A DNA stretch of 45,653 nucleotides from an uncultured Candidatus Saccharibacteria bacterium (GTDB lineage: Bacteria; Patescibacteriota; Doudnabacteria; UBA920). Where the stretch lies: positions 1 to 45,653 of the forward strand of contig CAZGCV010000004.1 of NCBI GenBank assembly GCA_964524735.1, given 5' to 3'. Under the pieces are notes generated by a model, which worked only from the letters and a program-made list of their open reading frames with translations, did no database searches and was not told the DNA's origin. The translations under genes were made by a program, and so were the position numbers. Shown here piece by piece: positions 4,937-40,992 of the stretch; position 1 is the first letter of the stretch, and each line of letters starts with the position of its first letter.

Positions 4937-6268
4937 ATGAAAAACGAAACTTCAAAAAATAAATTCAGGAAATATTTTAAATTTAGCAGAGCAGCTGTTA
5001 TTTTAGCAGTTGCTGTTTTGCCATTGATGTCATTGAGTTGTGGTGGAGGGGGAAATACAACTGCAGGGCCTGTTACTATTAAAATTTGGAAACCTTTCAT
5101 AGATACAGATAAAATGCAGTCTATTATTACTGCGTATCAGTCACAGCATAGTAATGTAACAATTGAGTATACAAAAAAGAATATTGAAAATTATGAAGCG
5201 GACTTGTTAAATGCTCTTGCGGCTGGAACAGGACCTGACATTTTTTCTATTAATAACTCTTGGGTTCCAAGATATATGGATAAAATTACTCCGGCAACCG
5301 AAAAAGTTTATACTGTAAAAGACTATCGCGATACTTTTGTTGATGCAGCGGCAACCGATTTGATCGTAGACAGCAAAATTTATGGCGTTGCTATGTGGGT
5401 AGATTCTTTAGCTCTTTACTATAATAAAGATTTACTGGGCACTGCTGGTATTGCAACTCCGCCAAAAACCTGGACAGAACTTGCTGAAGATGTTCGCATG
5501 ATTTCTCGACAAAATTCTACTGGTTACTTTGACCGCAGTGGTGTTGCAATGGGAACGAATGCAAATGTGAACCGTGGCGTTGATATTATTTATTTATTAA
5601 TGCTTCAAGCTGGCGCAGTGCCTTGGACATTAGACGGTAGCTCACCTTCATTCGCTAACAGTGTTTCCCGTGGTGGTAACTCTACGAATCCTGGAGCAGA
5701 AGCAGTTGAGTTTTATACATCATTTTCAAATCCTTCAAGTGCTAACTATACTTGGAATGAAGACAGTGATTACTCTATAGATGCATTTGCTAATGGACGC
5801 GCTGCATATTTATATGGCTATGCTTACACTCGTGCGACTATAGACAGTAAGGCACCAAACTTAAATTATGATGTAGCACCAGCACCACAATATAATTTAA
5901 GTAATCCGACTGTTAATTATTCAAATTATTTTGCGGAAGTTGTGAGCAAGCAAAGCAAACAGGCTGCCTGGGCATGGGATTTTCTGAAGTTCGCAACTAG
6001 CAAAAGCTCTTTAGAAGGTTATTATAAATTTGATAAGCAGCCATCATCACGCCGAGATATTATTGAGCAGCAAACAAGTGATACTAAGATTGGGGTTTTC
6101 GCTCACGCAAACTTGACTGGAAAAACTTTTTATAAGGCAGATGAAGCTAAATTTGATGCGATAATCGGTGATATGATTGATAATATAGTATTAAGAGGAC
6201 AGCCAGTTGACCAGGCAGTTACTAGAGCTCAGTCGCAAGCTAGCACTTTATCTTTAATCCGCCGTTAG
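4937..6268 (+). CDS. ABC transporter extracellular solute-binding protein (family 1, sugar-type), probable lipoprotein
   Basis: Signal peptide ending LMSLSC-GGGG (lipobox-like). SBP_bac_1-like pattern (IKIWKPF.., DIFSINNSW, YGVAMWVDSLALYYNKDLL). No permease or ATPase gene is adjacent. Confidence 0.7.
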   Translation: MKNETSKNKFRKYFKFSRAAVILAVAVLPLMSLSCGGGGNTTAGPVTIKIWKPFIDTDKMQSIITAYQSQHSNVTIEYTKKNIENYEADLLNALAAGTGPDIFSINNSWVPRYMDKITPATEKVYTVKDYRDTFVDAAATDLIVDSKIYGVAMWVDSLALYYNKDLLGTAGIATPPKTWTELAEDVRMISRQNSTGYFDRSGVAMGTNANVNRGVDIIYLLMLQAGAVPWTLDGSSPSFANSVSRGGNSTNPGAEAVEFYTSFSNPSSANYTWNEDSDYSIDAFANGRAAYLYGYAYTRATIDSKAPNLNYDVAPAPQYNLSNPTVNYSNYFAEVVSKQSKQAAWAWDFLKFATSKSSLEGYYKFDKQPSSRRDIIEQQTSDTKIGVFAHANLTGKTFYKADEAKFDAIIGDMIDNIVLRGQPVDQAVTRAQSQASTLSLIRR

Positions 6269-6301: not shown

Positions 6302-6325
6302 AAGCCCGCTCCAAAAGCGGGCTTT
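6302..6325 (+). terminator. Hairpin terminator after the SBP gene
   Basis: AAGCCCGCT-CCAAA-AGCGGGCTT, followed by a weak T tract. Confidence 0.55.
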
Positions 6326-6326
6326 G

Positions 6327-6335
6327 TGATATAAT
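6327..6335 (+). promoter_or_regulatory. Extended -10 promoter (TGaTATAAT) for the pilin-like array; first gene is leaderless
   Basis: TG at 6327-6328 and TATAAT at 6330-6335. The ATG at 6342 is exactly 7 nt after the -10 box. Confidence 0.5.
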
Positions 6336-6341
6336 TTTTAT

Positions 6342-6812
6342 ATGAATTCTCAATCACTTTTAGGAAAAGTTTTAGTTGGAGTAGTAGTTGCTTCTGTTTT
6401 AGCAATGGCTTTAGTACAAGTAACTCCAGCATTGGCTCAATCTGGACCAACTGCAGGTCAAGACGGCGGCTTCGTTATTTGCGGCAACAAGGCAGATGAT
6501 CCTTGTCAGATTGGTGACCTATTCGCAGTTTTTGTTATTATAATTAACTATTTAATTACAATGGCTGGGTTCGTGGCTGTGTTAGCAATTGTTTATGCTG
6601 GGTTTATGATGGTGTATTCGCAAGGCCAGGAGCAACTTAAAGCAGCTAAAGGTAGACTCACTGGTGCGATAATTGGACTGGTTTTGGTAGCTGCAGCATT
6701 TATTTTAATAAATTCAATATTTAGCGGCACATTTAGTGTGGGTGTTTGTAACGGCAATAGTATTTTAACTAGCCCGCTTGAATACATACAGAATGTTGAT
6801 TCTTGTAAATAG
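6342..6812 (+). CDS. VirB2/TrbC-like (T4SS-pilin-type) small membrane protein, paralog A (divergent, Cys-containing C-terminal tail)
   Basis: Signal peptide (..TPALA-QS), short Cys-pair N-domain, then two hydrophobic helices joined by YSQGQEQLKAAKGRLTGAIIGL. Same module as ORFs B-G. Confidence 0.6.
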   Translation: MNSQSLLGKVLVGVVVASVLAMALVQVTPALAQSGPTAGQDGGFVICGNKADDPCQIGDLFAVFVIIINYLITMAGFVAVLAIVYAGFMMVYSQGQEQLKAAKGRLTGAIIGLVLVAAAFILINSIFSGTFSVGVCNGNSILTSPLEYIQNVDSCK

Positions 6813-6815
6813 AAT

Positions 6816-7175
6816 ATGAACACAATAATCGCACAACGAAATACTAATACAGCAAATACTGGCGGAGTAAACCGAAATACGGGTAATTCCAACACTACTC
6901 AAACTGCTGTTCCAGCTATAAAAAACCCTTTCGGAACCAACTCCTTGGGTGGTGTGGTAAACCAGGGGATTAACATTTTGCTAGGATTAATAGTAATCGC
7001 AGCTGTTGTTGTAATTATTGTTGCTGGGTTTAGAATGATAACCGGCGGCGGAAATCCAGATCAGATTTCAAAGGCTAAGCAGACAATAATTTGGGCAATT
7101 ATTGGATTGGTTGTTGCATTTATGTCTTTTGCAATTGTGCAAATTATTCAAAATTTTCTACAGAGAGGTAATTAG
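6816..7175 (+). CDS. VirB2/TrbC-like pilin paralog B (no N-terminal signal peptide; N/T-rich leader)
   Basis: C-module AGFRMITGGGNPDQISKAKQTIIWAIIGLVVAFMSFAIVQII. Closest to paralog C. Confidence 0.6.
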   Translation: MNTIIAQRNTNTANTGGVNRNTGNSNTTQTAVPAIKNPFGTNSLGGVVNQGINILLGLIVIAAVVVIIVAGFRMITGGGNPDQISKAKQTIIWAIIGLVVAFMSFAIVQIIQNFLQRGN

Positions 7176-7176
7176 T

Positions 7177-8091
7177 ATGACTCATTATTCATTTAAACTT
7201 TTTATCGTCATTTTATTATTAAGTCCTTTGGTATTTAGCTTTTCTATTGTTAATGCTGAGGTTCCTGCTGAATATCAGAATTGCCAACCTATAGTTACAA
7301 ACTTTACTGTCAGTCCTACAAGTTTAGTGAGAAGAGAACAAGAAATAAGAACAACAACGAGAGTTGAGACAGTGGGATGTATAATAAGAGGCGATGTGTT
7401 AGGGGGTTCAAAATGGGCTGTGCGAATAGAATTTGTAAATGATAATGGTAGTTATTACGGAGATAACTCAGGTTATACTGTGCCGACGGAATATATAAGA
7501 GGATCTCAATTCGCGCGTATTAGTAATAATACTGCTAGCCCAGATTATAATAAATATTTTGCTACTTATAATGTATCGGTTCCTTCTCCTTTTGTTGGGC
7601 GTAGTGGTAATTCTGTAACTTTGAGGCCGAATGTGTATTGGGATTATGGTAGTGCAGCTAGTACTAGAGTAATTGATAATATTTCGCTTCAGAAAAAAAT
7701 AACAACTTCTCAAAATAACAACACCAATATTAATTCTAATACTACAAACGCAAACACTAGAGCAAATGTAAACACTCAAACCGGCGCAAACTTCAACATG
7801 GATTTAGATTCATCTCAAGGATCATTCTTTAATCCATTAGCAGGAAGTGTAAATAGTGTCCCTCAGTTAATCACTTCAATAATCCGAATATTATTTGTGT
7901 TAATTGGTATTTTATCAGTTGTGATAATCATTGTTTCTGGCTTCCGCATGGTTATATCTAGCGGTAATCAGGATCAAATCACAAAAGCAAAGAAAGCAAT
8001 TACATGGGCGATTATTGGTTTAATAGTTTCCTTGCTATCATTTAGCATTGTTTCAATAATCCAAAGATTAATTCAAGTCGGAGCAAATTAG
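7177..8091 (+). CDS. Pilin-like paralog C with a roughly 200-aa N-terminal globular domain and an N/T-rich linker
   Basis: Start chosen at MTHYSFKLF (signal peptide ..IVNA-EV), 2 nt after the stop of B. C-module is SGFRMVISSGNQDQITKAKKAITWAIIGLIVSLLSFSIVSII. Confidence 0.6.
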   Translation: MTHYSFKLFIVILLLSPLVFSFSIVNAEVPAEYQNCQPIVTNFTVSPTSLVRREQEIRTTTRVETVGCIIRGDVLGGSKWAVRIEFVNDNGSYYGDNSGYTVPTEYIRGSQFARISNNTASPDYNKYFATYNVSVPSPFVGRSGNSVTLRPNVYWDYGSAASTRVIDNISLQKKITTSQNNNTNINSNTTNANTRANVNTQTGANFNMDLDSSQGSFFNPLAGSVNSVPQLITSIIRILFVLIGILSVVIIIVSGFRMVISSGNQDQITKAKKAITWAIIGLIVSLLSFSIVSIIQRLIQVGAN

Positions 8092-8097
8092 TATAAT
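8092..8097 (+). promoter_or_regulatory. -10 box TATAAT abutting the stop of paralog C, 7 nt before the paralog D ATG
   Basis: The sequence reads TAG|TATAAT|tcacact|ATG, the same architecture as at galU. Confidence 0.4.
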
Positions 8098-8104
8098 TCA
8101 CACT

Positions 8105-8518
8105 ATGAAATTTTTAAAAACAGCATTATTGATATTTTCTTTGGCAGTGGTAATATTTTTACCGCAACGAGCAATTGCACAACAAAATTCAGGACAAAAA
8201 GCTCAGTGTGATGAATTGCGTCAGCAGTTTCAGAATGCAGGTGGCGGAGAAATTATCGGAACTTTGCCTGAGTTTTGTTCAACAGGTCAAGTTTATAATA
8301 CTTTCTTAAACGCCGCTTTGTATGCAGTTGGGATCGTGGCGGTAATCATGGTAATTTACGGCGGATATCTGTATATGACATCAGGGGCAAATGAAGGACA
8401 GAAGAAGAAAGGAAGAGATATTCTTGTTTGGTCAATAATCGGTCTGGCTGTTGTGCTAACAGCTGCAGTAATCGTAAATGTAGTAATTCGCGCAATTGTT
8501 GAAAACCGGTTTGTATAA
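8105..8518 (+). CDS. VirB2/TrbC-like pilin paralog D
   Basis: Signal peptide (..RAIA-QQ), Cys-pair N-domain, and C-module YGGYLYMTSGANEGQKKKGRDILVWSIIGLAVV. Confidence 0.65.
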   Translation: MKFLKTALLIFSLAVVIFLPQRAIAQQNSGQKAQCDELRQQFQNAGGGEIIGTLPEFCSTGQVYNTFLNAALYAVGIVAVIMVIYGGYLYMTSGANEGQKKKGRDILVWSIIGLAVVLTAAVIVNVVIRAIVENRFV

Positions 8519-8582
8519 TTCGCTGTTTATCAGTAGAATATAAACAGTTCTATTATAAGTTCTATCTTATACCCGAAAGGCG

Positions 8583-9014
8583 GTGAAAAACTTGAAACAA
8601 ACTTTACAAAAACTAAACTGGTTGAACGTTGTACAATTCGCTCTAATTATGGTGGTAGCTTTAGCTCCAATCGTAGTTCCTCGTGTTGCTGATGCTCAAC
8701 TGGTTAATCAATTCGTAAACAACTGTCCTGCCGATACCGGCGTTCGTTGTTCTGAAGGCAGTATTGCTTCTATTTTCCGCCTGATTATTAACTGGGCATT
8801 AGCAATCTCCTTCATCGTAGCAGTTATTATGCTTATTATCGGTGGATTTAGATATATTACTTCTGCTGGTAACGCTAGTACTGCTGAAGCAGGAAAGAAT
8901 ACAATCGTTAATGCCTTAATTGGTATCGTAATCATTGTTCTTTCTTACATCATCGTTCAAATCGTTTACCGTTTCGTATCTGGTCAAGGTGCTGGCGGTA
9001 TTATGGGACCGTAA
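8583..9014 (+). CDS. VirB2/TrbC-like pilin paralog E (GTG start)
   Basis: Signal peptide (..VADA-QL), CPADTGVRC, and C-module IGGFRYITSAGNASTAEAGKNTIVNALIGIVIIVLSYIIVQIV. Confidence 0.65.
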   Translation: MKNLKQTLQKLNWLNVVQFALIMVVALAPIVVPRVADAQLVNQFVNNCPADTGVRCSEGSIASIFRLIINWALAISFIVAVIMLIIGGFRYITSAGNASTAEAGKNTIVNALIGIVIIVLSYIIVQIVYRFVSGQGAGGIMGP

Positions 9015-9037
9015 AGTTTCTCCCGCACTCTGTGCGG

Positions 9038-9087
9038 GATAACTCCGGCCGCAAAATTATCCTATGAATTTTGCCTCCGGAATTATC
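9038..9087. repeat. 50-nt near-perfect inverted repeat (about 19 bp of pairing) between paralogs E and F
   Basis: GATAACTCCGG-CC-GCAAAATT / AATTTTGC-CT-CCGGAATTATC. It is preceded by a separate hairpin, CCCGCAC-TCT-GTGCGGG, at 9022-9038. Confidence 0.7.
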
Positions 9088-9095
9088 TAAAGTAT

Positions 9096-9500
9096 ATGAA
9101 ACTAAAAACAATTTTACTTACACTCGCTGGCGTTATTTTTTCTTTTGGAATTTTGATGCCAAGCTCTATTCCTGCAATGGCACAGCCAAGTGGAAGCGGG
9201 GATGCAGCTCAGCAAGGACTTGATGCAATAGGTGGCGCATTTCCTCAAGGCGCTCGCCAGGCAAACTATGATATTCAATCAGTAACAAAGAGAGTAATTG
9301 ACTGGGCTTTGTACATAGCTGCTATTGTTGCTGTAATTTACATTATTATCGGCGGATATTTTTACATTACTTCTGCTGGAAACGCCACACAAGCAGGAAA
9401 AGGAAAATCAACTTTGGTGAATGCATTAATTGGTTTAACTTTAATTATTCTTTCTTACGTAATAGTACAGATTGTGTACAATTTCTTAACAAGACCATAA
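9096..9500 (+). CDS. VirB2/TrbC-like pilin paralog F
   Basis: Signal peptide (..PAMA-QP) and C-module IGGYFYITSAGNATQAGKGKSTLVNALIGLTLIILSYVIVQIV. Confidence 0.65.
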   Translation: MKLKTILLTLAGVIFSFGILMPSSIPAMAQPSGSGDAAQQGLDAIGGAFPQGARQANYDIQSVTKRVIDWALYIAAIVAVIYIIIGGYFYITSAGNATQAGKGKSTLVNALIGLTLIILSYVIVQIVYNFLTRP

Positions 9501-9517
9501 TTCACACATTTAGAATC

Positions 9518-10366
9518 GTGTTTAATTTAGCTCTAAAAATTACAAATTTTTCAATCGCCATGCTCGTACTAGCGAGCGCGGCGTTTTTCGTGATGCCTGC
9601 AAGAGAAGATGTCATGGCTCAGAGTGGTAATATGGTTAGTTTTTGTTTTAATTCAAGTACCGGTGAGTTTATGAGACCTCATCAAGCAACAGCTTCTTGT
9701 CCCTCAGATTCTTCTATAACACAAGCACCAAGATCAAACATGGGTTTTTGTGTAGATCGGGGCTCTGGTGGAGGTTATGTTGCTCTTTCTCCATCAATGT
9801 CTAACGGCCAACCTAAATTAAACCAAGCTGGAACTAAGTGTTTAGACGATAATAACGAAGAAATGGGTAACTACCGTTCTTTTACAAGCATTACTCAAAC
9901 TTATACACCACCTGGCACAAATCCAGGAACAACTCCTGGAACCAACACTAATACAACACCTGGAACAGGTATAAATCCAGGTACAAATACAAATCCAGGA
10001 ACAACTCCTGGAACCAACACGGGGGGTACAACTCCAACGCCTCCAACTGGTGGTTGTGAGACTGGCTTTCATAAAGTAGGGCCTTTGTGTGTACCAAATA
10101 GTCCATTCAACAACGGACAGGCGATTACAGGAGAACAAACCCTTGGCGGCTTGGCAACTAGAATTATTAGCTGGCTTCTATATTTTGCTGGAGTTGTAGC
10201 TGTATTTATGGCGATCATTGGCGGTTATCAGGTAATGACAGCAGCTGGCAATGCTACTCAAGCTTCAAACGGCCGCAAGACTTTAACTAATGCGATTATT
10301 GGCCTGGTTATAATAATTTTGTCTTATGTAATTATTCAGGCAGTTATCCGTTTTGTAGTAAATTAG
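9518..10366 (+). CDS. Pilin-like paralog G with a Cys-rich N-domain and PGT-rich repeat linker (GTG start)
   Basis: Signal peptide, about 8 Cys, PGTNPGTTPGTNTNTTPGTGINPGTNTNPGTTPGTN, then IGGYQVMTAAGNATQASNGRKTLTNAIIGLVIIILSYVIIQAV. Confidence 0.6.
   Translation: MFNLALKITNFSIAMLVLASAAFFVMPAREDVMAQSGNMVSFCFNSSTGEFMRPHQATASCPSDSSITQAPRSNMGFCVDRGSGGGYVALSPSMSNGQPKLNQAGTKCLDDNNEEMGNYRSFTSITQTYTPPGTNPGTTPGTNTNTTPGTGINPGTNTNPGTTPGTNTGGTTPTPPTGGCETGFHKVGPLCVPNSPFNNGQAITGEQTLGGLATRIISWLLYFAGVVAVFMAIIGGYQVMTAAGNATQASNGRKTLTNAIIGLVIIILSYVIIQAVIRFVVN
9917..10020 (+). repeat. Perfect 32-nt direct repeat, two copies 72 nt apart, inside paralog G
   Basis: ACAAATCCAGGAACAACTCCTGGAACCAACAC occurs at 9917-9948 and 9989-10020. 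It encodes the (T)NPGTTPGTNT units. Confidence 0.9.
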
Positions 10367-10400
10367 CCCTTTTCAAATTCATAGAAATATCTTATAATTG

Positions 10401-10429
10401 ATAACTAGAGGTAACTCTAGTTATTTTTT
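10401..10429 (+). terminator. Rho-independent terminator closing the pilin-like array
   Basis: ATAACTAGAG-GTAA-CTCTAGTTAT (10 bp perfect) followed by TTTTTT. Confidence 0.8.
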
Positions 10430-10473
10430 CAAAGTTCGCGCGTACTAAATATTAGGTAGCGCAAGCAAAATAC

Positions 10474-10560
10474 GCCGGGGTGGCGAAATTGGCAGACGCA
10501 CCAGCCTTAGGAGCTGGCGGGAGCAATCCCGTGGAGGTTCAAGTCCTCTCCCCGGCACCA
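10474..10560 (+). tRNA. tRNA-Leu(UAG), class II with long variable arm, CCA encoded
   Basis: Acceptor GCCGGGG/CCCCGGC, anticodon arm CCAGC-CUUAGGA-GCUGG, variable arm CGGGAGCAAUCCCGU, T-loop UUCAAGU. Confidence 0.9.
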
Positions 10561-12506: not shown

Positions 12507-13400
12507 GTGATTACGCAAATGCGTTACACAAAAATCCTCCGAACCGCATATCAAATTACCATAAACAATCCAGTGTTGTGGTTACTTGGTCTGTTCCTGT
12601 TCGGGGGATTTAATTTTTATTTGCTTTCATTTTTTGCATCTTTAACAGGCGATAGTCTGTCTTCTTTTTTGATTATCATTAATGATGCTTTTGCGCTTCT
12701 TCCTGGGAATTTTATAGTAACAATTATTGTTGTATCTATCTTGTTCGTAGTATTTAACGCAGTAAAAGTTTTGTTTATTGTATATGCGCATCAATATTTG
12801 CATATAAGTAAAGCAAAAGAATGTTTGTTATGCGTTGTAAATGAAGACAGATCTTTCCCTGTATTTTCATGGCTATGGAAAGCGCTGGCAGCTAGTTTAA
12901 TTACAATTATAGTTAATTTTATTTTTGTTCTGATAATTGCAGCGTTGCCTGCAAAATTTAGCGCGTACGGAAACATCGCTATGTATACAAATATCTTTTT
13001 GGTTACTTTAGCAGCAACAGTGACTGGGGCGTGGAATATGTTTACTAATTACTTTGTTATTCTGCATAATTTGAATTTTCGAAATGCTGCAGGTAGTGCT
13101 TTGGATTTGCTGATTGAAAAATTTAGAAATGTTCTCGAATTTATTTTAATTTTAGGAATAGTTTATGCACTTTGTGCTATGATCGGCAATGTAATGATAA
13201 ATATTTGGAGAACAGGCTATTTAGGCGTGGAAACTTTGTATGTTAAAACTATTTTTGCAGGTTTGTTTGTGATTTGGTTTGCATTAACAAATACATTTTT
13301 TGCTGCAGCTATGCTTGTCTTTTTTGACCATTTAATTAAAGCTGTTACTTCAAATAAAACTGCTAAGAATAGACAATTGCCTGTAAATGTATTAAACTAG
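12507..13400 (+). CDS. Polytopic membrane protein, unknown function
   Basis: About 7 hydrophobic segments and no recognisable motif. GTG start at 12507, or ATG at 12519. Confidence 0.4.
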   Translation: MITQMRYTKILRTAYQITINNPVLWLLGLFLFGGFNFYLLSFFASLTGDSLSSFLIIINDAFALLPGNFIVTIIVVSILFVVFNAVKVLFIVYAHQYLHISKAKECLLCVVNEDRSFPVFSWLWKALAASLITIIVNFIFVLIIAALPAKFSAYGNIAMYTNIFLVTLAATVTGAWNMFTNYFVILHNLNFRNAAGSALDLLIEKFRNVLEFILILGIVYALCAMIGNVMINIWRTGYLGVETLYVKTIFAGLFVIWFALTNTFFAAAMLVFFDHLIKAVTSNKTAKNRQLPVNVLN

Positions 13401-19416: not shown

Positions 19417-20043
19417 ATGAGAATTGCAGGATTTTTGATCGCGATTTTATTGTTGATGGTGAGTGTCGAAGCACAGAACGCATCGGTATTCTTTAATTAC
19501 GCAGGCAAACAATATTCTATACAAAAGAGTATTGATCCTGCAAAAAAGTTTGCTAATGTGCCTCTGAGCCTAGATGGGCAATTTTTAAAAGACGAGCTGG
19601 GACAAGTTATTACCAGTGGTCTCGCAATAAAGATCGAGTATTCTTTCATTCATAATGATGAGAAGGTTTCGTTGCCAAACGAACTTAAGGTTCGCGAGGA
19701 AGTTGAAACTCTGTATCACAATGTGAAAGGGTCAGTGCTGTCGAGTTTATACTCGATTGAGGTTCCTGTTGTTGATGGAGTGGTGAGCGATGTCATTTTT
19801 GTTGGCACTTCGCGACCTGCAAAATCTCTCAAGGCTCTTGAGATGGTAAAAAGACAGAAAGTTTTTGTTGTAGATAATAAAGGCTTTGAGCATCTGTTTA
19901 TTGACCAGTTAATCGCAATTAATTGGGACAAAGGGGTAATTACGCTTATTCCAACTCAAGATAAAGACTTGGCTTATGTGGCTGGGCTTAAAAATAACCA
20001 GGTGATTCCAAACCGGTTATTACCAGCTTTGGCTAAAAACTAG
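19417..20043 (+). CDS. Secreted hypothetical protein (208 aa)
   Basis: SD GGAGG and a signal peptide (MRIAGFLIAILLLMVSVEA-QN). Confidence 0.45.
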   Translation: MRIAGFLIAILLLMVSVEAQNASVFFNYAGKQYSIQKSIDPAKKFANVPLSLDGQFLKDELGQVITSGLAIKIEYSFIHNDEKVSLPNELKVREEVETLYHNVKGSVLSSLYSIEVPVVDGVVSDVIFVGTSRPAKSLKALEMVKRQKVFVVDNKGFEHLFIDQLIAINWDKGVITLIPTQDKDLAYVAGLKNNQVIPNRLLPALAKN

Positions 20044-20056
20044 CAAAGTCTTATAT

Positions 20057-20088
20057 AAGCCAGGGTATTAAATATCCTGGCTTTTTTC
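20057..20088 (+). terminator. Rho-independent terminator
   Basis: AAGCCAGGGTA-loop-TATCCTGGCTTTTTT. Confidence 0.75.
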
Positions 20089-20097
20089 TTTTGATTA

Positions 20098-20106
20098 TGG
20101 TATAAT
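20098..20106 (+). promoter_or_regulatory. Extended -10 promoter TGgTATAAT
   Basis: TATAAT at 20101-20106, upstream of the ORF at 20141. Confidence 0.45.
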
Positions 20107-20140
20107 ATTTGTAGTTGAGTAACTACAAAAAGAAACAAAA

Positions 20141-21310
20141 ATGTCTAAAAATATAAAGTTAATTTTAATGTTTTTAGTAATAATACCTTTTTTGGGTATT
20201 GTTGAAACTAAAACAGCTCAGGCACAGGTTGGGGTATCAACTTCAATCAGAATGCAAGCTCAGGGATCATTCTATTATGGTAGTGGTAATATTATGTCTT
20301 TACCTTGTGCACAATTGACCAATGATGGAAACCGTCTTGTTATGAGGAATCGTTTTAGTACCAATGCTAATCCAGGTGGGGGTAGTACTACTTTGCAAAT
20401 TTATAATGCTAGTAATGGACAACTTCTTAATACTATAAATGGCAGCATTAGTGGTACGAGTTATGATTCGGGCGCAGTGGCAATTAATTTGCCATCCCAG
20501 GTCAGTACAATTTATATGTATTTAAGTGTTTCTTCGGTAAGAAATAATGTAACTGGTCACAATATTTCATTTTCAAGAGATAGTAGATCAGGTAATGGTA
20601 CTGTATCTATGGGAGGAGGTTCTGGCGGTGATTCTGTCACATACGTTGTTCAGGCTCCTTCAAGCGACAGTGGTTGTAATGATCCTGCTCCTGCTCCAAA
20701 TTTTTCAATCTCATGCACTCCTGCATCAACAACTATTACTGCTGGAAGCTCAACTTCATTTAATCTTTCAACTACAGCTCAGAATGGATTTAACTCAAAT
20801 GTAAACTTTACCCATTCAATTAGTCCGAATGCAGGAAATGTGCCAGGTATTAGCTATTCAAATAACAACAGGGTTCCTCCTGCGACTACCACAGCTACTA
20901 TTAGCACATCTGCATCAACTACACCGGCAACATATAATATTATCTTTACCGCAACTAGTGGTTCAATAACTAAACAATGTAGTGTCCAGTTAATAGTCAA
21001 TGCTCAGCCCGCTCAACCTGCATTTACTTTGTCTGTTACTCCAGCCAACAGGGATGCATTGAGAACAGCTGGATCTCAGGCGTACAATGTAACGGCTAAC
21101 TGTTCAAACATGAACGGACCAATTACAGGCTTGCAAGCTTCTAGTCCATTCTCTGGGCTTTCTTACAGCTTTTCTAGTACAACAGTTGCTTGTGGTGGAA
21201 CTGTAACCTTAACAGTTGGCAATTTAGGATCTGTTCCAAACGGACAGCTCTCTGATCCTCAACAAAGACTGCCTCAAAATATATCTGTCACAGGTACAGC
21301 AGCTAATTAA
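20141..21310 (+). CDS. Secreted surface protein with Cys-bracketed Ig-like domains (paralogous domain shared with 22139-24655)
   Basis: Signal peptide (..TKTAQA-QV). The domain FSISCTPASTTITAGSSTSF...TATSGSITKQCSVQLIVN closely matches FNISCSPASRTITAGSSASV...TASGGSITKQCSVSLTVN. Confidence 0.6.
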   Translation: MSKNIKLILMFLVIIPFLGIVETKTAQAQVGVSTSIRMQAQGSFYYGSGNIMSLPCAQLTNDGNRLVMRNRFSTNANPGGGSTTLQIYNASNGQLLNTINGSISGTSYDSGAVAINLPSQVSTIYMYLSVSSVRNNVTGHNISFSRDSRSGNGTVSMGGGSGGDSVTYVVQAPSSDSGCNDPAPAPNFSISCTPASTTITAGSSTSFNLSTTAQNGFNSNVNFTHSISPNAGNVPGISYSNNNRVPPATTTATISTSASTTPATYNIIFTATSGSITKQCSVQLIVNAQPAQPAFTLSVTPANRDALRTAGSQAYNVTANCSNMNGPITGLQASSPFSGLSYSFSSTTVACGGTVTLTVGNLGSVPNGQLSDPQQRLPQNISVTGTAAN

Positions 21311-21318
21311 AATATTTT

Positions 21319-21345
21319 AAAAACCCCCTAATTTTAGGGGGTTTA
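21319..21345 (+). terminator. Rho-independent terminator
   Basis: AAAAACCCCCTA-ATTT-TAGGGGGTTT. Confidence 0.75.
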
Positions 21346-21363
21346 ATTATGATTTGTTTAAGC

Positions 21364-21392
21364 TTGACATATTAAGATAAAGTTAGTATAAT
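21364..21392 (+). promoter_or_regulatory. Consensus promoter TTGACA-17 nt-TATAAT
   Basis: TTGACA at 21364-21369 and TATAAT at 21387-21392. Confidence 0.65.
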
Positions 21393-21428
21393 TTGGATAG
21401 TTCTTTATATTTCAAATTTGGAGGGATT

Positions 21429-22055
21429 ATGAAAAAGTTAGTATTAGGGTCAATGTTTATGGTAGCTTTTCTGTTTTTTGCGGTCCCTCTTGCGGCTAAC
21501 GCCCAAACAGAGAACGTAAAAAAGATGAGCTCGAACGAACAAGCAATTTACTTGGCAGCAATGAATCTGTTAAGTGATGAGGATTATTCTGTTTTGGAAC
21601 AATTCCAAGTTCAGAACAAGACTGGGGCGATATCATTTGTTTTTGACAAGCAGCTTACTTTAATTACTCAAGATAAAACTTCATTGAAGGAAATGAAGAG
21701 TAAGGCTATGTTTTGTCTCGGTGAAAAAGCCTCTTTTCCAATTTACATTAGAAGAGAGAGCGATTTCTTTACTTCTCTGGTTTCTGGGTATCTAAGAACC
21801 AGTCATTTAGTCAAAGTTGATGAACACCCCGTTTCTATGGCTTTGGCTGCTAAAATTTCTCATGAAATATTTCATGTGAATAATCCCGGTATAGCAGAAA
21901 GTGAAGTGCTGGCAATTCAGCATGAGCAAAAGATTTTTAATGGATACAAAAAGAACTTTGCTCAAACTTTGGCAATATCTGGTCTAGCATCAATTGTAAG
22001 TGATTATTCCGATAATTTGGATAAGGATCTTAGAATAGCAAAAGCTGGAAAATAA
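21429..22055 (+). CDS. Small secreted protein with an HExxH motif (putative metallopeptidase-like)
   Basis: Start moved to the ATG after the GGAGG SD. Signal peptide (..VPLAANA-QT). HEIFH lies within AAKISHEIFHVNNPG. Confidence 0.45.
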   Translation: MKKLVLGSMFMVAFLFFAVPLAANAQTENVKKMSSNEQAIYLAAMNLLSDEDYSVLEQFQVQNKTGAISFVFDKQLTLITQDKTSLKEMKSKAMFCLGEKASFPIYIRRESDFFTSLVSGYLRTSHLVKVDEHPVSMALAAKISHEIFHVNNPGIAESEVLAIQHEQKIFNGYKKNFAQTLAISGLASIVSDYSDNLDKDLRIAKAGK

Positions 22056-22063
22056 CTTTTTCT

Positions 22064-22097
22064 AAAGAGATTATGTACTTGCATAATCTCTTTTTTT
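22064..22097 (+). terminator. Rho-independent terminator
   Basis: AGAGATTATG-loop-CATAATCTCT followed by TTTTTTT. Confidence 0.8.
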
Positions 22098-22107
22098 ATG
22101 CTATAAT
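22079..22107 (+). promoter_or_regulatory. Promoter TTGCAT-17 nt-TATAAT nested in the preceding terminator
   Basis: TTGCAT at 22079-22084 and TATAAT at 22102-22107. Confidence 0.55.
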
Positions 22108-22138
22108 TTTAGTATAAAGTCCACAAAAAGAAACAAAA

Positions 22139-24655
22139 ATGAAAATTAAGAAAATATTTTTAAGCTTTGCAGCGGTATTTGTCACAATATCGTCTTTTGG
22201 TTTTACAGGATTAATCCAAAAGGAAGACGTTACTTCATTAATTGAACCTGTAAAAGAAGCTAAGGCTCAGTATTGTGGGGCTCCTTCAGAAATTGAAGCA
22301 GGCACAACAGGATGGTTTTCCGTAGAAATTCAATCTCCTTGGAGTGGTGCTTGTATGCCTGGAAGTGTTGATTCAAATGTTCCAGGAATTATTTTCGGCC
22401 AGCAGTATGAGCGATGTGATGACCAGGCTGGTTGGTGGAACTGGGAGTATTCAACTTCATATAATGCAAATAACTACGCAAATATCACTTCTCCTCAAAC
22501 GATTGGTGTTATGGTTAGTTCTATGTCAGGAACAGGCGGTGAATGTGAGGCCTTTCAAGATTACGTAGAAATTACCATAGTTCCAAATGGATGGTACAAT
22601 CAGGACTTTAATATTAGCTGTTCTCCTGCTTCAAGAACTATTACAGCAGGAAGCTCTGCATCAGTAACAATTTCTACAACTAAAACAGGCGCATTTAATA
22701 GTCCTGTGAATGTGACTCATTCAATTTCACCTGGTGGTAATCAGCCGACTATTAGCTATACAAACAATAACCAGATTCCTCCAGCGACAACTACTGCTAA
22801 TATTTCAACAACTACTTCAACAAGCGCAAATACTTATACGATTGTATTTACGGCTTCAGGAGGTTCAATTACTAAACAGTGCAGTGTTTCTTTAACTGTA
22901 AACCCGTCTGTTCCAATCGTTGGTGGCGGCACAACTCAGTTGGCTGTGTATCAAACACCAACAGCAACATTTCAAATTAATGGCGCAGCTTCATCTACTA
23001 TTAATCAAGGACAAACAGCTGTATTAAGCTGGCAGCCAAGCGCTACTAATAGCGGCACTGCTTGTACTGCTGGTAATGCATGGGGTGGTGCTAAAAGCAG
23101 TACTCCTGGATCAAATTATTCAGAAGTTATTGGCCCTTTAAATACTCCAGGTACTTATACTTACACTATTCAGTGTTCAGGTGCTTTAAGTTCATTTAGT
23201 CCTACTTACTCTGTTACTTTAACTGTTCAAGCTTTGGTGCCAACATCTGACATTAAAGCAAATGGTTCAGATGGACCAATTACAATTCCATATAACACCG
23301 CAGCAACTATCACATGGACTTCTACTAATACAACTTCTTGTACTGTAAGTCCTTCAAGTTGGACTGGGGTAACTGGAAGTCAGTCAACTGGAGCATTAAC
23401 TTCTGCAAGAACTTATACATTGTCATGTACAGGTCCTGGTGGAAACACAACAGACTCAGTTACAGTGAACGTAACTAACCCATCTTTTTCTATTAACTGT
23501 ACTCCGGCAACAACAACTATTATTGCTGGTAGTTCAACTTCATACATCATTACTGTAAGTGGTCAGAATGGTTTCTCAGGGCAAGTAAGTTTTAGTTCTA
23601 ATGTTTCTGGTCCTGCAATTGGTAAAAATCAAACAGCGCCTAATATTACTTTTAGCCCAAATCCAAGCGGTACTGGTACTGTAACTGGTTTGGTAACAAC
23701 GAGTCCTTCAACCACTCCAAGCGGTACTTATACAATTACTATTACAGCTGCGAGCGCGGGATTTGCTAACCAGACTTGTAACGTACAGCTGGTAATTAAC
23801 CCGGCAACCCCTCCTAACCCTCCAACAAATGTAGCTGTTTCAAATTCAGGGCAATGTGGAACTATAGATATTTCTTGGAGAAATAGCACTGGTTCACCTA
23901 CTCCAGTTGCGTATCGTGTATACCGAAGAATTTCTCCTACAGATCCTTGGCAGCAGCTTGGAGCAGATATTCCTTATACTGCCGGCGCTGCGCATGTATA
24001 CTCTCTAAGAGATAACACTCCATTAAGTTTGGCAGGGTCTAACTACTATGCCGTAGCTGCTGTAGCAAACAGTGTTGAATCTACATACGCATCAGCAAGT
24101 CCGTCTCCAATAGTTCCAGTTGCTTGTACTCCAAACTTGGGTAGTTCCGATAAAGACGTACTAAGTGTTTCTGGAAGAATCAACCGTACATTTACTCCAA
24201 TACAATGTTCTGGAACATCAGAAACTGCTGCATTACCTAATGGCGCATTGTATGCTCCTGGTGATGTAGTAACTTTCCAAATTAACGTATGTAACACTGG
24301 AACCCAAGAACTTACTGGAGTTCAGGTCACAGATACATTTACTAATTTGTCTAACATGACAGTGTTGCCTTCTGTTCCACCTGGATGTGTTACTGGAAGT
24401 TCTGTAAATGCCAACAACGTCACATTTAGCTTGGCTAATGTTGCTGCTAATAATGGTATTTGTGCAATTCGCTTGCGAGGAACAGTTACTGCTCCCGCAA
24501 ACCCTACTGCTGCAATTTATAGATTCCAGAACAGAGCTATAATTACAGGAAATGGAGGTAGTGTTACTCGAGAAGTGTATACTCCACCTTACTTGTTTAG
24601 TGTAACTGGTGGTACACCAGATCGCGGTGAAACTGCTCCTCCTCGCCCTCAATAA
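22139..24655 (+). CDS. Large secreted multidomain surface protein (838 aa): Ig-like repeats, FN3-like and DUF11-like domains
   Basis: Signal/anchor N-terminus. Two copies of the Cys-bracketed domain shared with 20141. Two W..C..C Ig-like repeats, an FN3-like segment (PTNVAVS..ISWRNS..YRVYRR), and a DUF11-like VTFQINVCNTGTQELTGVQVTDTF. Confidence 0.7.
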   Translation: MKIKKIFLSFAAVFVTISSFGFTGLIQKEDVTSLIEPVKEAKAQYCGAPSEIEAGTTGWFSVEIQSPWSGACMPGSVDSNVPGIIFGQQYERCDDQAGWWNWEYSTSYNANNYANITSPQTIGVMVSSMSGTGGECEAFQDYVEITIVPNGWYNQDFNISCSPASRTITAGSSASVTISTTKTGAFNSPVNVTHSISPGGNQPTISYTNNNQIPPATTTANISTTTSTSANTYTIVFTASGGSITKQCSVSLTVNPSVPIVGGGTTQLAVYQTPTATFQINGAASSTINQGQTAVLSWQPSATNSGTACTAGNAWGGAKSSTPGSNYSEVIGPLNTPGTYTYTIQCSGALSSFSPTYSVTLTVQALVPTSDIKANGSDGPITIPYNTAATITWTSTNTTSCTVSPSSWTGVTGSQSTGALTSARTYTLSCTGPGGNTTDSVTVNVTNPSFSINCTPATTTIIAGSSTSYIITVSGQNGFSGQVSFSSNVSGPAIGKNQTAPNITFSPNPSGTGTVTGLVTTSPSTTPSGTYTITITAASAGFANQTCNVQLVINPATPPNPPTNVAVSNSGQCGTIDISWRNSTGSPTPVAYRVYRRISPTDPWQQLGADIPYTAGAAHVYSLRDNTPLSLAGSNYYAVAAVANSVESTYASASPSPIVPVACTPNLGSSDKDVLSVSGRINRTFTPIQCSGTSETAALPNGALYAPGDVVTFQINVCNTGTQELTGVQVTDTFTNLSNMTVLPSVPPGCVTGSSVNANNVTFSLANVAANNGICAIRLRGTVTAPANPTAAIYRFQNRAIITGNGGSVTREVYTPPYLFSVTGGTPDRGETAPPRPQ

Positions 24656-36906: not shown

Positions 36907-37155
36907 ATGTCTGAGAATCAAAAACAGCTTTTAGCTGATCCGACAAAGCTAATTTCTTTGTCTGAAGCTGCAGAAGCAACGCCTTATTCTGCGGAGTATC
37001 TATCTTTACTTTCACGTAAAGGTAGAATTCCAGCAATTAAAATTTCACGTGACTGGCTTACGACTCGTAAGGCGGTTTTGTTGTATGTAAGCGAGCAGAA
37101 AAAGAAACATGCTGAGTTGTTTAAAAGATTTAAAACATCTGGAGGATTACGCTAA
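36907..37155 (+). CDS. Small excisionase/MerR-like helix-turn-helix protein (82 aa)
   Basis: LISLSEAAEATPYSAEYLSLLSRKGRIPAIKISRDWLTTRKAVLLYV resembles an HTH_17-type winged HTH. Its stop overlaps the next start (TAATG). Confidence 0.55.
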   Translation: MSENQKQLLADPTKLISLSEAAEATPYSAEYLSLLSRKGRIPAIKISRDWLTTRKAVLLYVSEQKKKHAELFKRFKTSGGLR

Positions 37156-40100
37156 TGCCACAAATTACAGTAAATTTGATTCATGATTTAAAAAAAGCTC
37201 ATGAACATAAGGAAAAAGTGCCATTTATTGGTGGTTTGCGAACTGGATTTGTTCACGCATGGTTTGTAACCGCAGTTAAGGTGATGTTTATTTTTGCGCT
37301 ATTGTCAGGAGTGGATATTGTAGGAAAACTGCAAGAAAATGTTGTTTTGCTAGACCAATTGGTTGGTAATGATTTTACTGTCAATTCAGAAGATAGCTTG
37401 CCTAAGCGCATTGTTATTCGTGACAATAATTTTATGCCTAGAGGGGAATCTTTTGGAGTAGTGGCATCTGAATTTTCTGATAATTCTAGTATGCAGACTA
37501 ATGGTGTAGTTGCGAGTGAAAACACTGTTGTTGTAAATAATATTCAAAATGCTCCTGTTTCAGGATCAGGAATTACGCAATCATATATTGATGAACTAAT
37601 TCGTTATAATATTGCGAATGCAATTGCAGCTCGTTTTTTACTTCCAGGAACAGGCGATAACAGCGATGGTTGTTTGCAAATTGATCGTGCTGGTACAGTA
37701 ACCACTCGCGGATCTCGTTGTGGTTCCGGCGGAGGCGGTGGAGGAGGTTCATCTCCAGCTAACTTGTCTATTGGTAGTATTATTTCTGGCGCGACTCCGA
37801 ATTCTATCTTGTTTGTTGGTGCTGGCGGTGAACTTGCTCAAGACGCCGCGAATCTATTTTGGGATGACGCAAATAACAGTTTAGTTATCGATGGCGAAAT
37901 GCTTGTGACAAGCTTGGCTACTGGTGGCGCTACTGAGTGTGTTCAGGCAAATATATTAGGTGTTCTATCAACTACTGGCGCTCCCTGCGGAGCAGGCGGT
38001 GGTGGAATGTCTATTGGTGGATCAATCACTTCTGCAACAACAGGTTCAGTTCTTTTTGCAGGAGCTGCTGGTGTTCTACAACAAGACAATGCTAACTTCT
38101 TCTGGGATGACACAAACAACAGACTTGGTATTGGAACTGCTTCTCCTATAGCGCCTTTGCATGTTGGAGGTTCAAATAATTTCGGGAGTGTTTCCCTGTT
38201 TGGTTACAGCGGAGCTGTAAATACATACATCAACCCAGTATACAGTACAGACACTGGAACTGATCAGGTTACTGCTAATACAGCTTTACTTGAGTTAACT
38301 AACAGCTCTCAGGCAGATATGGTATCTTTCTCTGGACAAACAGGAGTTGTGATTAACTCTTCTTCCGCAGATATGGCATCAACATATTCTCAAATGATTG
38401 GCGGAGCATTTTATTCAGGCTTGTACGGTACAGGCTCTATCTACGGAGCAACTGGTGTTATGGGTATAGTTATGCGAGCTAATAGTGGTACTGTTGAATC
38501 TGCTCAAGGTGGATACTTCGCATTCCAGAATGCTAATGGCACGGGGACTACATCATCGGTTATAGGTGTTAATATTGGACAACCAGTTAGTCCAGCAGGC
38601 CACACTATTACCAGTACTTTTGGTCTATATATCGCAGACCAGACTAACATAGGAGGAGGTACTCAAACCAACACACCTTATGGTATTTACCAGGCTGGTG
38701 CTTCTAACCTTAACTATTTTGGAGGGACTATTACTGCTCCTGGAGCAGGTGCAAGTTCTGAACGGTTTGGGTTTGGAAGCAGTGCTGATGGTGCAAGTGC
38801 AACTGCTTTGGGGTGGCTTTCAAGTGCTTCTGGTGACGGAGATTTAGCGGTAGGGGGTGGAGCGGAATCTAGCGGCGGATATTCAATCGCAATCGGATAC
38901 GGAGCACAATCAACAGGTGTACAAGGTATATCTTTAGGGTTCACTGCATCTGCTTCAGGTAATGCAAGTGTGGCTTTGGGTAATTTTGCTTCAGCATCAA
39001 GTGTTATGGGTCATGCTTTTGGGTATAGTGCAACATCTAGTGCTCTAGGTGGCTTGGCTATTGGTCAAGCTGCAACCGTAAATGGCACTGCTGGAATTGC
39101 TTTAGGTGGGGGTACTGCAGCAGGTGCGCATGAGTTAGTAATTGGCGGCGAGTATGATACTTTTAACTCCATTGATTATGGGATTAATAATGTTTACATT
39201 GGTAATGGAGTAACTAACGCTACTCCTCAAAGTTTTGCGCTAAACGCTACGGGCGGACAAGGTGCTAACATAGCTGGAGCAAACATCGCTATAGCTGGTG
39301 GTAAAGGAACAGGAAGTGCTGTTGGTGGAAACATTCTTTTCCAATATGCTCCAGCAGGATCTTCTGGATCATCTCTTAATTCATTACAAACAGCTTGTGC
39401 TATTTCAGGTACTAATGGAAGTTTAAACTGTCCTGGTACAGGCGCTTTTTCTGCTAGATTTGGTTCTGGTGCAACAGCTGGTGGGCTCGGTGCTAATGCT
39501 TTTGGTACTAATGCTAATGCAGGAGGTTTGAGCGCTGCAGCGTATGGAGGTAATGCATACGCTCCATCTGATTATGCTACTGCTTTAGGTTCATTAGCCT
39601 CATCTTTGGGTCCTAACTCTGTAGCAGCTGGTGCATTGGCTACTGCTTATGATAATGGTTCTGCTTTTGGGGCATATGCTTTTGCAAACAATAATTCCAT
39701 TGCTCTAGGATATTCTGCAGCAACATCAGCAGCCAACCAACTTGTCATAGGATCAGGATCTGCATCTATTCAAACAGCATACATTGGTAACGGAGTAACT
39801 AACGCTACTCCTCAAGGATTCTCTCTTAATGCAACAGGCGGTAGTGGAACAAACATTGCTGGAGCAAACATGACTCTAGCATCAGGACGTGCTACAGGAA
39901 ACGCAGCTGGTGGAAACATTCTTTTCCAGACATCAGATGTAGGATCTTCAGGATCAACACTACAAACTCTTACTACCAAAGCTACTCTCTTAGCTAATGG
40001 TAATTTTGGTATAGGGACAGCGGCTCCAGCTTTAAAATTTAGCGTAGAAGCAGACGCAGCATCATCGTATGTAGCAAGCTTTCAAAACACTGGAAACAAC

Positions 40101-40949: not shown

Positions 40950-40992
40950 TTTAACAGGGTCTTTATTTTGTTTAATAATTAAACTTTTAAAA

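Follow-up and report, generated by a model that had tools for sequence, protein, structure and literature searches.

What does a bacterium do with seven pilin-like genes in a row, set among housekeeping genes and with no secretion machinery beside them? The question is raised by contig CAZGCV010000004.1 (hereafter the window, i.e., the whole 45,653-nucleotide stretch analyzed). Its source belongs to the Saccharibacteria, class Saccharimonadia, within the Patescibacteria or Candidate Phyla Radiation (CPR), and its nearest genomes carry the label Candidatus Saccharibacteria or Patescibacteria group bacterium. The listing of open reading frames (ORFs) in the window contains seven consecutive plus-strand ORFs from 6342 to 10366, here called A to G, each a VirB2-like gene of the T4SS_pilin type; all seven described in an earlier note on this DNA are present. 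Our preferred reading, to which we give a probability of about 0.55, is that they encode a heteromeric surface filament that depends on a type IV secretion system (T4SS), bears adhesins on minor subunits and serves host contact, not conjugation.

This class of locus is already in the literature. In a survey of 3,035 Patescibacteria genomes with the Pfam families PF18895 and PF04956, Quinonero-Coronel et al. (2025; PMC12102498) reported 441 VirB2 arrays, each of 2-11 genes and particularly from Saccharimonadia, whose members were on average 25% and at most 54% identical. VirB2-like pilins occurred in 1,948 VirB4-containing assemblies and were close to virB4 in 1,135 of them (PMC12102498). In Ca. 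Southlakia epibionticum (S. epibionticum), transposon sequencing (Tn-seq) showed a series of pilins inside the T4SS cluster to be essential (Wang et al., 2023; PMC10633639). A 2025 review (PMC12857230) likewise describes the S. epibionticum pilin array and T4SS as essential, refers to six sequence-divergent VirB2-like pilins and treats a pilus in a monoderm as an open possibility. The T4SS is conserved throughout Saccharibacteria, and its function has been described as completely unknown (PMC11665869). Published arrays comprise at least two PF18895 or PF04956 genes of a Patescibacteria genome, in tandem or with one non-pilin gene between them; the locus studied here, with seven adjacent genes, is a further member of the class.

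What the seven proteins share is a C-terminal module of about 75 aa, which a MAFFT alignment (A1) reveals in every one of them as a helix, a short basic loop rich in G/N/Q/K and a second helix, with four invariant columns. The earlier note had recognized such a common module, and its motifs are broadly right: GG[FY]..T[SA].GN fits D-G, but is replaced by [AS]GF in B and C, A being the most divergent member, and S[YF]xIVQ fits B, E, F, and G but is loose in C. The paralogs are 21-28% identical at full length and 26-58% identical within the module. Module identities of 55% between B and C, 47-58% among E, F, and G, and 26-38% for D and A, which stand apart, reproduce the sub-families proposed in that note. 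Hydropathy analysis found two hydrophobic helices in all seven proteins. AlphaFold2 (AF2) placed the helices of D at residues 60-92 and 97-134, with a predicted local distance difference test score (pLDDT) of 84-90 over the module, and those of C at residues 228-260 and 265-303, with a module pLDDT of about 76-83.

Profile searches assign the module to a known family. Six of the seven paralogs exceed the gathering cut-off of T4SS_pilin (PF18895; 26.6 bits), with scores of 41.9 (B), 39.5 (C), 48.8 (D), 41.4 (E), 35.8 (F), and 34.1 bits (G). Paralog A falls below it at 22.5 bits (E 1.2e-4) and is joined to the others by alignment A1 and by 88 bits with a hidden Markov model (HMM) of the module derived from the array. 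TrbC/VirB2 (PF04956; gathering cut-off 27.9 bits) is passed by B (28.7 bits), with D (25.1) and F (20.4) below the cut-off and no match for A, C, E, or G in the Pfam profile scan. All seven match NF045849, the Mbov_0395 family of pilin-like conjugal transfer proteins, B at 48.1 bits and thus above its cut-off of 40 bits, D at 38.5 and the others at 24-33 bits; the integrative and conjugative element (ICE) context of that family is absent from the window. The assignment to the VirB2/TrbC/T4SS_pilin families made in the earlier note is therefore upheld by PF18895 for B-G, by PF04956 for B, and by the predicted helical hairpin. Membership in T4SS_pilin is solid, and the Pfam and NCBIfam profiles point to a relation with classical VirB2/TrbC pilins. 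According to PMC12102498, VirB2-like pilins are absent from the MPF-FATA (mating-pair formation type FATA) systems; the NF045849 match points otherwise. It suggests that the Patescibacteria pilin may have arrived with a monoderm-type T4SS and not have been co-opted from diderm systems. In many Patescibacteria other than Saccharibacteria, the T4SS_pilin module lies N-terminally (residues ~50-150) in products of gene pairs encoding about 700 aa and 2,200-3,500 aa; such giant fusions were seen at L036, L043, L052, L053, L055, L058, L059, L062, L064, L066, L072-L074, L077, L081, and L083.

Comparison with related genomes indicates that the seven genes form a set. Pilin D of the window has no exact database match, and its orthologs P0003, P0006, P0015, and P0030 were used instead; D orthologs led to L001, L003, L005, and a JGI contig, and a scan of species-representative genomes to L006-L014. 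FtsH and SMC of the relatives are 77-93% identical to those of the window. The value for FtsH is only 79-93%, which means that lineages carrying the same array are well diverged. Nonetheless, all relatives examined (at least 10 genomes) have the layout LspA-ComM-nucleotidyl transferase-solute-binding protein (SBP)-[pilin array]-FtsH. The module HMM detected seven pilin genes in L001, L003-L009, L013, L014, and the JGI contig, and eight in L010 and L011. The extra gene of these two (within L010:10917-11841 and L011:10837-11744) encodes about 135 aa, lies between E and G and is F-like by size and position.

Orthology proved to be one-to-one in eight genomes: for each paralog the top match came from the corresponding position, with 58-94% identity between ortholog modules as compared with 34-63% at the second-best position. 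A neighbor-joining (NJ) tree of the eight genomes resolved seven orthogroups with one member per genome, with nothing to suggest that genes had recently been duplicated or had undergone conversion. Orthogroups this clean imply that the seven-fold expansion is old and stably inherited, and because one-to-one orthology is so strict, the seven paralogs look like a fixed, non-redundant set with distinct roles, i.e., co-assembly. Co-assembling subunits had been offered in the earlier note as one of two alternatives, and it is this one that fixed orthology favors. The hairpin modules change at about the slow rate of housekeeping proteins (58-94% identity as against 79-93% for FtsH), a constraint far above the need of a simple hydrophobic anchor. 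Paralog E is the most conserved member, its module being 81-88% identical to those of its orthologs.

Ahead of the module, the seven plus-strand genes differ. In paralog A (6342-6812, 156 aa), a predicted signal peptide and a Cys-pair loop precede the divergent hairpin module, and a second Cys pair lies in a C-terminal tail of 20 aa. Paralog B (6816-7175, 119 aa) carries an N/T-rich N-tail without a signal peptide in front of its hairpin module. Paralog C (7177-8091, 304 aa) consists of a signal peptide, a β-sandwich domain, an N/T-rich linker and the hairpin module; its earliest possible start is TTG 7102, but ATG 7177 is supported by the signal peptide, an upstream GAGAGG Shine-Dalgarno sequence and the match to the 304-aa protein P0171. 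Paralogs D (8105-8518, 137 aa) and E (8583-9014, 143 aa) have a signal peptide and the hairpin module separated by a conserved Cys35-Cys58 loop in D and a NNCPADTGVRCSEGSI loop in E, whose GTG start is backed by a conserved N-terminus in L003 and L005. Paralog F (9096-9500, 134 aa) has a signal peptide and the hairpin module, and no Cys. Paralog G (9518-10366, 282 aa, GTG start) has a signal peptide, an N-domain with six Cys, a linker encoded by PGT-type repeats of 12-nt period, and a conserved CETGFHKVGPLCVPNSP motif ahead of the hairpin module. Shine-Dalgarno sequences are missing for most genes of the array.

A signal-peptide-like leader ending in AxA↓Q is thus found in six of the seven proteins, and A, C, D, and E each have one Cys pair in the N-region. 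Sequence features, on which six of the seven agree, give a net-basic loop and predict that the Cys pairs in the N- or C-tails are extracellular. In five members the predicted topology leaves short ectodomains, with some 20-45 residues exposed. These analyses bore out the earlier descriptions of the N-regions (Cys pairs, the leader of B, the globular domain of C, the Cys-rich and PGT regions of G). The AF2 model of C shows a folded N-domain of about 145 aa, a β-sandwich over residues ~35-178 with pLDDT mostly above 80, followed by a disordered N/T-rich linker (residues 181-227). Foldseek returned weak matches of this domain to RbmA, a Streptococcus adhesin, carbohydrate-binding modules (CBMs), and Gram-positive pilins; these Ig/FN3/CBM-like matches predict a generic adhesin or CBM-type fold. 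The C N-domain occurs in only four database proteins, and other C-type pilins have fn3 or purple-acid-phosphatase-N domains at its position. For the G N-domain, 28 cluster representatives were found among 1.84 billion, 26 of which are of the size of G-type proteins (245-305 aa).

The N-regions evolve at unequal rates. Between orthologs, that of E is the most conserved (65-83% identity); the values are 35-55% for G, 32-73% for A, D, and F, and 25-27% for C. The N-regions of B are not comparable between orthologs: they range from 41 to 195 aa, and some have gained a signal peptide or a whole domain. The B ortholog of L003 has a signal peptide, and those of L005 and L007 carry N-terminal extensions of ~110-195 aa (about 195 aa at L005:8293-9066; a 231-aa protein at L007:5217-5912). 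N-terminal turnover is concentrated at positions B and C. The term "hypervariable" used before holds between paralogs; between orthologs it holds strongly for B and C only. Of the comparison among relatives that the earlier note had recommended, array size came out as fixed (apart from the eight genes of L010 and L011) and N-domain content as variable, with turnover in B and C.

The array lies in a housekeeping neighborhood. Its upstream neighbors encode LspA, ComM, a nucleotidyl transferase, and an SBP lipoprotein, and its downstream neighbors tRNA-Leu, FtsH, RNase III, SMC, S16, TrmD, L19, RNase Y, NusA, and ClpP; in base composition the array matches its flanks. A Pfam scan that took in every other ORF of the 45.6-kb window down to 100 aa found no VirB4, VirB6, VirD4, PrgI, or relaxase. 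Likewise, tblastn of the window with two Patescibacteria T4SS-type ATPases (VirB4- or coupling-protein-like) and a complete Saccharibacteria T4SS cluster gave no match. Both searches agree with the earlier statement that no T4SS machinery is nearby. Since no T4SS gene neighbors the array in the clade of the window, the array there is genetically unlinked from the machine, unlike in other Saccharibacteria.

Two of these other Saccharibacteria, L050 (Candidatus Nanosyncoccus) and L068, have a pilin array of 4-6 genes directly beside a divergently transcribed T4SS core cluster (L050:1393-8110 and L068:1802-9065, both on the minus strand). The cluster encodes a protein of about 1,100 aa, PrgI/VirB3 (PF12666), a protein of about 295 aa, and VirB4 of 599 or 611 aa (PF19044, PF12846). 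The VirB4 proteins of L050 and L068 are 88% identical, and the best 120 of 8,000 database matches to the L068 VirB4 query are all at least 90% identical. A Walker-A screen of 79 related loci found two T4SS-type ATPases, in L051 and L054, beside single pilins, and overlooked the VirB4 proteins of 599 and 611 aa from Saccharibacteria; these came to light only on inspection of L050 and L068. In the NJ tree, nearly all pilins of L050 and L068 fall in a branch separate from the seven orthogroups of the window's clade, L050_1 being a long-branch outlier beside the D group.

We infer that the proteins are exported by Sec and assembled by a T4SS, that they form a filament, and that the paralogs divide the labor among themselves. 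Each protein would be exported via Sec, six of them with a cleavable signal peptide, and would be held in the membrane as a helical hairpin whose termini both face outward and whose short basic loop faces inward. A T4SS encoded elsewhere (VirB4, PrgI/VirB3, and a VirB6-like protein) would extract the subunits and build one heteromeric pilus-like structure, with the short paralogs A, B, D, E, and F as its body. C and G would be minor subunits, which display the β-sandwich (C) and the Cys-rich domain (G) on flexible low-complexity linkers, and these domains may assume the adhesin or nucleator role that VirB5 has in diderm systems. Such a structure could serve contact or exchange with the host bacterium in epibiotic growth, without conjugation. 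The link to a T4SS is drawn because the arrays of L050 and L068 adjoin PrgI and VirB4.

Several observations weigh against this T4SS-dependent filament. No T4SS gene adjoins the array in the window or within 10 kb on either side in relatives. The contig is no longer than the window itself, so that a VirB4 of the source genome is presumed from the literature on Saccharibacteria. Paralog B has no signal peptide, and a pilus made of these proteins is unseen in any Patescibacterium (PMC12857230, PMC10633639). The hairpin module at the N-terminus of the 2,200-3,500-aa proteins of other Patescibacteria fits an anchor. Profile searches of the PDB with alignments A2 (D family) and A6 (general module) returned no match at E<=10, and hhalign of A6 against A. 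tumefaciens VirB2, whose sequence was checked against 8cue/8exh, gave a probability of 0.2, a single-sequence template being a weak test. When the model of D was searched with Foldseek, the matches were generic helical hairpins only; the best conjugative-pilus match, an Aeropyrum conjugation pilus (8dfu; E 2.1, TM 0.59), ranked sixth. The Foldseek result is evidence for neither side.

A more specific proposal, which we put forward tentatively and consider rather unlikely as a whole, is that the seven proteins are an obligate, stoichiometrically controlled set for one heteromeric T4SS pilus of a single-membrane bacterium. The shaft would consist of one or few paralogs, and E is a candidate, being the most conserved and being followed by a conserved RNA double hairpin (described below). 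The part of tip adhesin or nucleator, for which VirB5 is missing, would fall to the domain-bearing C and G. On this view, host specificity would be determined by their fast-replaced domains, the β-sandwich and the Cys-rich one. As the operon has moved off the T4SS cluster, pilus composition could be regulated apart from the machine.

Alternatively, the module may be a permanent two-helix membrane anchor, and the array would then encode seven tethered surface proteins whose linker-borne ectodomains cross the wall independently of any T4SS. We consider this unlikely, even though it accounts for the N-terminal module of the giant proteins (2,200-3,500 aa) and their partners of ~700 aa at many Patescibacteria loci. 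It is also in keeping with the linkers of C and G, which at about 45-50 aa are long enough to span the cell wall, with the distance of the array from T4SS genes, with the lack of detectable similarity to solved pilins, and with the fact that Gram-positive-type T4SSs are normally without a pilus (PMC12102498). However, five of the seven proteins expose just ~20-45 residues and so have little to display, and the hairpin is as well conserved as housekeeping proteins and has invariant positions (G, GG[FY], and IG), in which generic anchors differ. Moreover, the TrbC and Mycoplasma ICE pilin-like models match, and arrays of other Saccharibacteria adjoin VirB4/PrgI and are essential together with the T4SS (PMC10633639).

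The other alternative raised in the earlier note, a surface-variation or host-range cassette of interchangeable subunits, has fared worse, and we regard it as improbable. Such a cassette would parallel the variable trwL/trwJ copies of Bartonella and differ between strains in copy number and content. The low full-length identity of the paralogs (21-28%), their mutually unrelated N-regions, the B and C N-domains that differ between related genomes, and the extra F-like gene of L010 and L011 would all suit a cassette, and PMC12102498 offers the same speculation. Against it, gene number, order, and chromosomal site are constant in at least 10 genomes except for that extra gene. Each position has its own ortholog (modules 58-94% identical, as against 26-58% between paralogs), the tree lacks recent duplication or gene conversion, and E is strongly conserved throughout.

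A mating pilus of a DNA-transferring conjugative element is very improbable. Homology to TrbC/VirB2 and to the Mycoplasma ICE pilin-like family would be expected of one; however, the array sits amid housekeeping genes at a syntenic site in all relatives, its composition matches that of the flanks, the 45 kb hold no relaxase, coupling protein, integrase, or VirB4, and relaxases are mostly missing from Patescibacteria T4SSs in general (PMC12102498). A mobile element is rejected on the grounds of housekeeping synteny and uniform composition, and the housekeeping context and general scarcity of relaxases sustain the earlier view that this is not a conjugation locus. Hardly any weight falls to an unrelated family of small membrane proteins such as holins or bacteriocin-immunity proteins, to which small size and two transmembrane helices would point, since phage or bacteriocin context is lacking and no match to such a family was found in Pfam, NCBIfam, or PHROGs.

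We also analyzed the boundaries of the operon. A hairpin, AGCCCGCT-ccaaa-AGCGGGCT (6302-6324, plus strand; -15.5 kcal/mol, z -4.1), terminates the gene for the solute-binding lipoprotein, has counterparts in L001 and L006, and is the upstream boundary of the pilin operon. Directly past it lies an extended -10 element, TGATATAAT (6327-6335, plus strand), a putative promoter. Because the ATG of gene A begins only 7 nt past the end of this box, the operon mRNA is probably leaderless; the spacing of -10 hexamer, 6 nt, and ATG is kept in L001 and L005. A TATAAT sequence also stands 7 nt ahead of the ATG of D (region 8092-8107). At the downstream end, ATAACTAGAG-gtaa-CTCTAGTTAT followed by a T-run (10400-10431, plus strand; -13.7 kcal/mol, z -4.6) is the intrinsic terminator of the operon, whose stem is kept, with compensatory changes, across 7 genomes. 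The -10 box and terminator hairpin noted earlier are thus both present, and the latter is conserved.

A single transcription unit running from one promoter to one terminator, as had been proposed, is too simple, for a conserved double hairpin intervenes between E and F (9016-9081, plus strand; -30.5 kcal/mol, z -6.0). Across 7 genomes, where it is conserved, the first stem (UCCCGCA/UGCGGGA) never varies, unlike its loop, and compensatory changes affect 5 of 20 pairs, in the second stem. The double hairpin has no Rfam match and no clean U-run after it. Perhaps it works as an element for processing, stability, or attenuation and thereby determines the proportion of A-E relative to F-G. A promoter-like TTxCAA-17-TATAAT (10370-10398), kept in 7 genomes, ends 1-2 nt before the operon terminator, and a tRNA-Leu(UAG) gene follows at 10474-10560. 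The region 10370-10431 looks like a putative overlapping terminator and promoter that would feed tRNA-Leu(UAG) and perhaps ftsH. Transcripts from this box would begin inside the terminator stem and so escape termination.

Other features of the window were recorded alongside. The lipoprotein gene always found immediately upstream of the array (4937-6268; SBP_bac_1/8, lipobox LSLSC) is an orphan, with no gene for an ABC permease or ATPase near it. Directly after ftsH, a 297-aa ORF (12507-13400) keeps its position in all relatives and is 24-57% identical among them; its product is fast-evolving and has no Pfam or NCBIfam match. The regions 19417-24655 and 37155-43560 contain a block of unannotated ORFs, among them one for an 838-aa protein with DUF11/DUF7507 repeats, and genes for two very large predicted surface proteins of 1,264 aa (Peptidase_S74, YadA-head) and 907 aa (Big_7). 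These are candidate epibiont adhesins. The 5′ end of a 16S rRNA gene lies at the contig edge (45404-45653; Rfam SSU_rRNA_bacteria, 186 bits).

The locus matters in that a pilin array and the T4SS are essential for epibiotic growth of the sole genetically studied Saccharibacterium. A fixed set of seven individually conserved genes in one clade favors co-assembly over antigenic variation, the variable N-domains of B and C offer themselves as candidate determinants of host recognition, and the array proves to be genetically separable from the secretion machinery. The seven fixed orthogroups, the unlinked position, the N-domain turnover at B and C, and the conserved intercistronic RNA structure are new here. 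They refine a published class and hold no surprises; the overall picture is unchanged and the question sharpened, with targets for work in cultivable relatives.

Among known systems, the closest are the published VirB2 arrays of Patescibacteria (PMC12102498), including the six-pilin array of S. epibionticum ML1 and the "Sec secreted array" of TM7x. They belong to the same Pfam families and likewise consist of tandem Saccharimonadia genes with signal peptides and without a relaxase, and their identity is similarly low (here 21-28% at full length, with modules up to 58%). They differ in location: in S. epibionticum, L050, and L068 the T4SS cluster encloses or adjoins the array, whereas in the clade of the window it lies between the SBP lipoprotein gene and ftsH. 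They also differ in content, as this clade forms seven orthogroups of its own and two of its members (C and G) carry domains of 150-200 aa.

The VirB2/TrbC/TraA pilins of diderms resemble the array's proteins in predicted architecture, in which a signal peptide is followed by two hydrophobic helices with a short basic loop between them. By contrast, the proteins described here have no detectable sequence similarity to the solved subunits (8cue/8exh T-pilus, F-pilus), belong to a monoderm host, number seven where one is expected, include fusions to N-terminal domains, are encoded apart from VirB4, VirB5, and VirB6, and are known from genes alone. Bartonella Trw resembles the array in its tandem, divergent copies of trwL (VirB2) and trwJ (VirB5), which belong to a T4SS without a coupling protein and are proposed to produce variant pili for host-specific adhesion (PMC12857230). 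The Bartonella copies, however, are recent tandem amplifications within a T4SS operon, whereas those of the window form ancient, stable orthogroups away from T4SS genes.

The 80-residue model of the Mycoplasma ICE family NF045849 is matched by all seven modules, and the hosts of both groups have a single membrane and a T4SS of the MPF-FATA type. In Mycoplasma, the family is represented by a single gene on a mobile element, in contrast to seven chromosomal genes with extra domains here. A functional analogy, finally, is provided by type IV pili and the pseudopili of type II secretion, which are also built from fixed sets of paralogs that share an assembly module and have their own orthologs across species. 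In these sets one subunit is abundant and several are minor or tip-forming, some of them with extra domains. Their fold and assembly machinery are unrelated, type IV pilins having one N-terminal helix and a site for prepilin peptidase.

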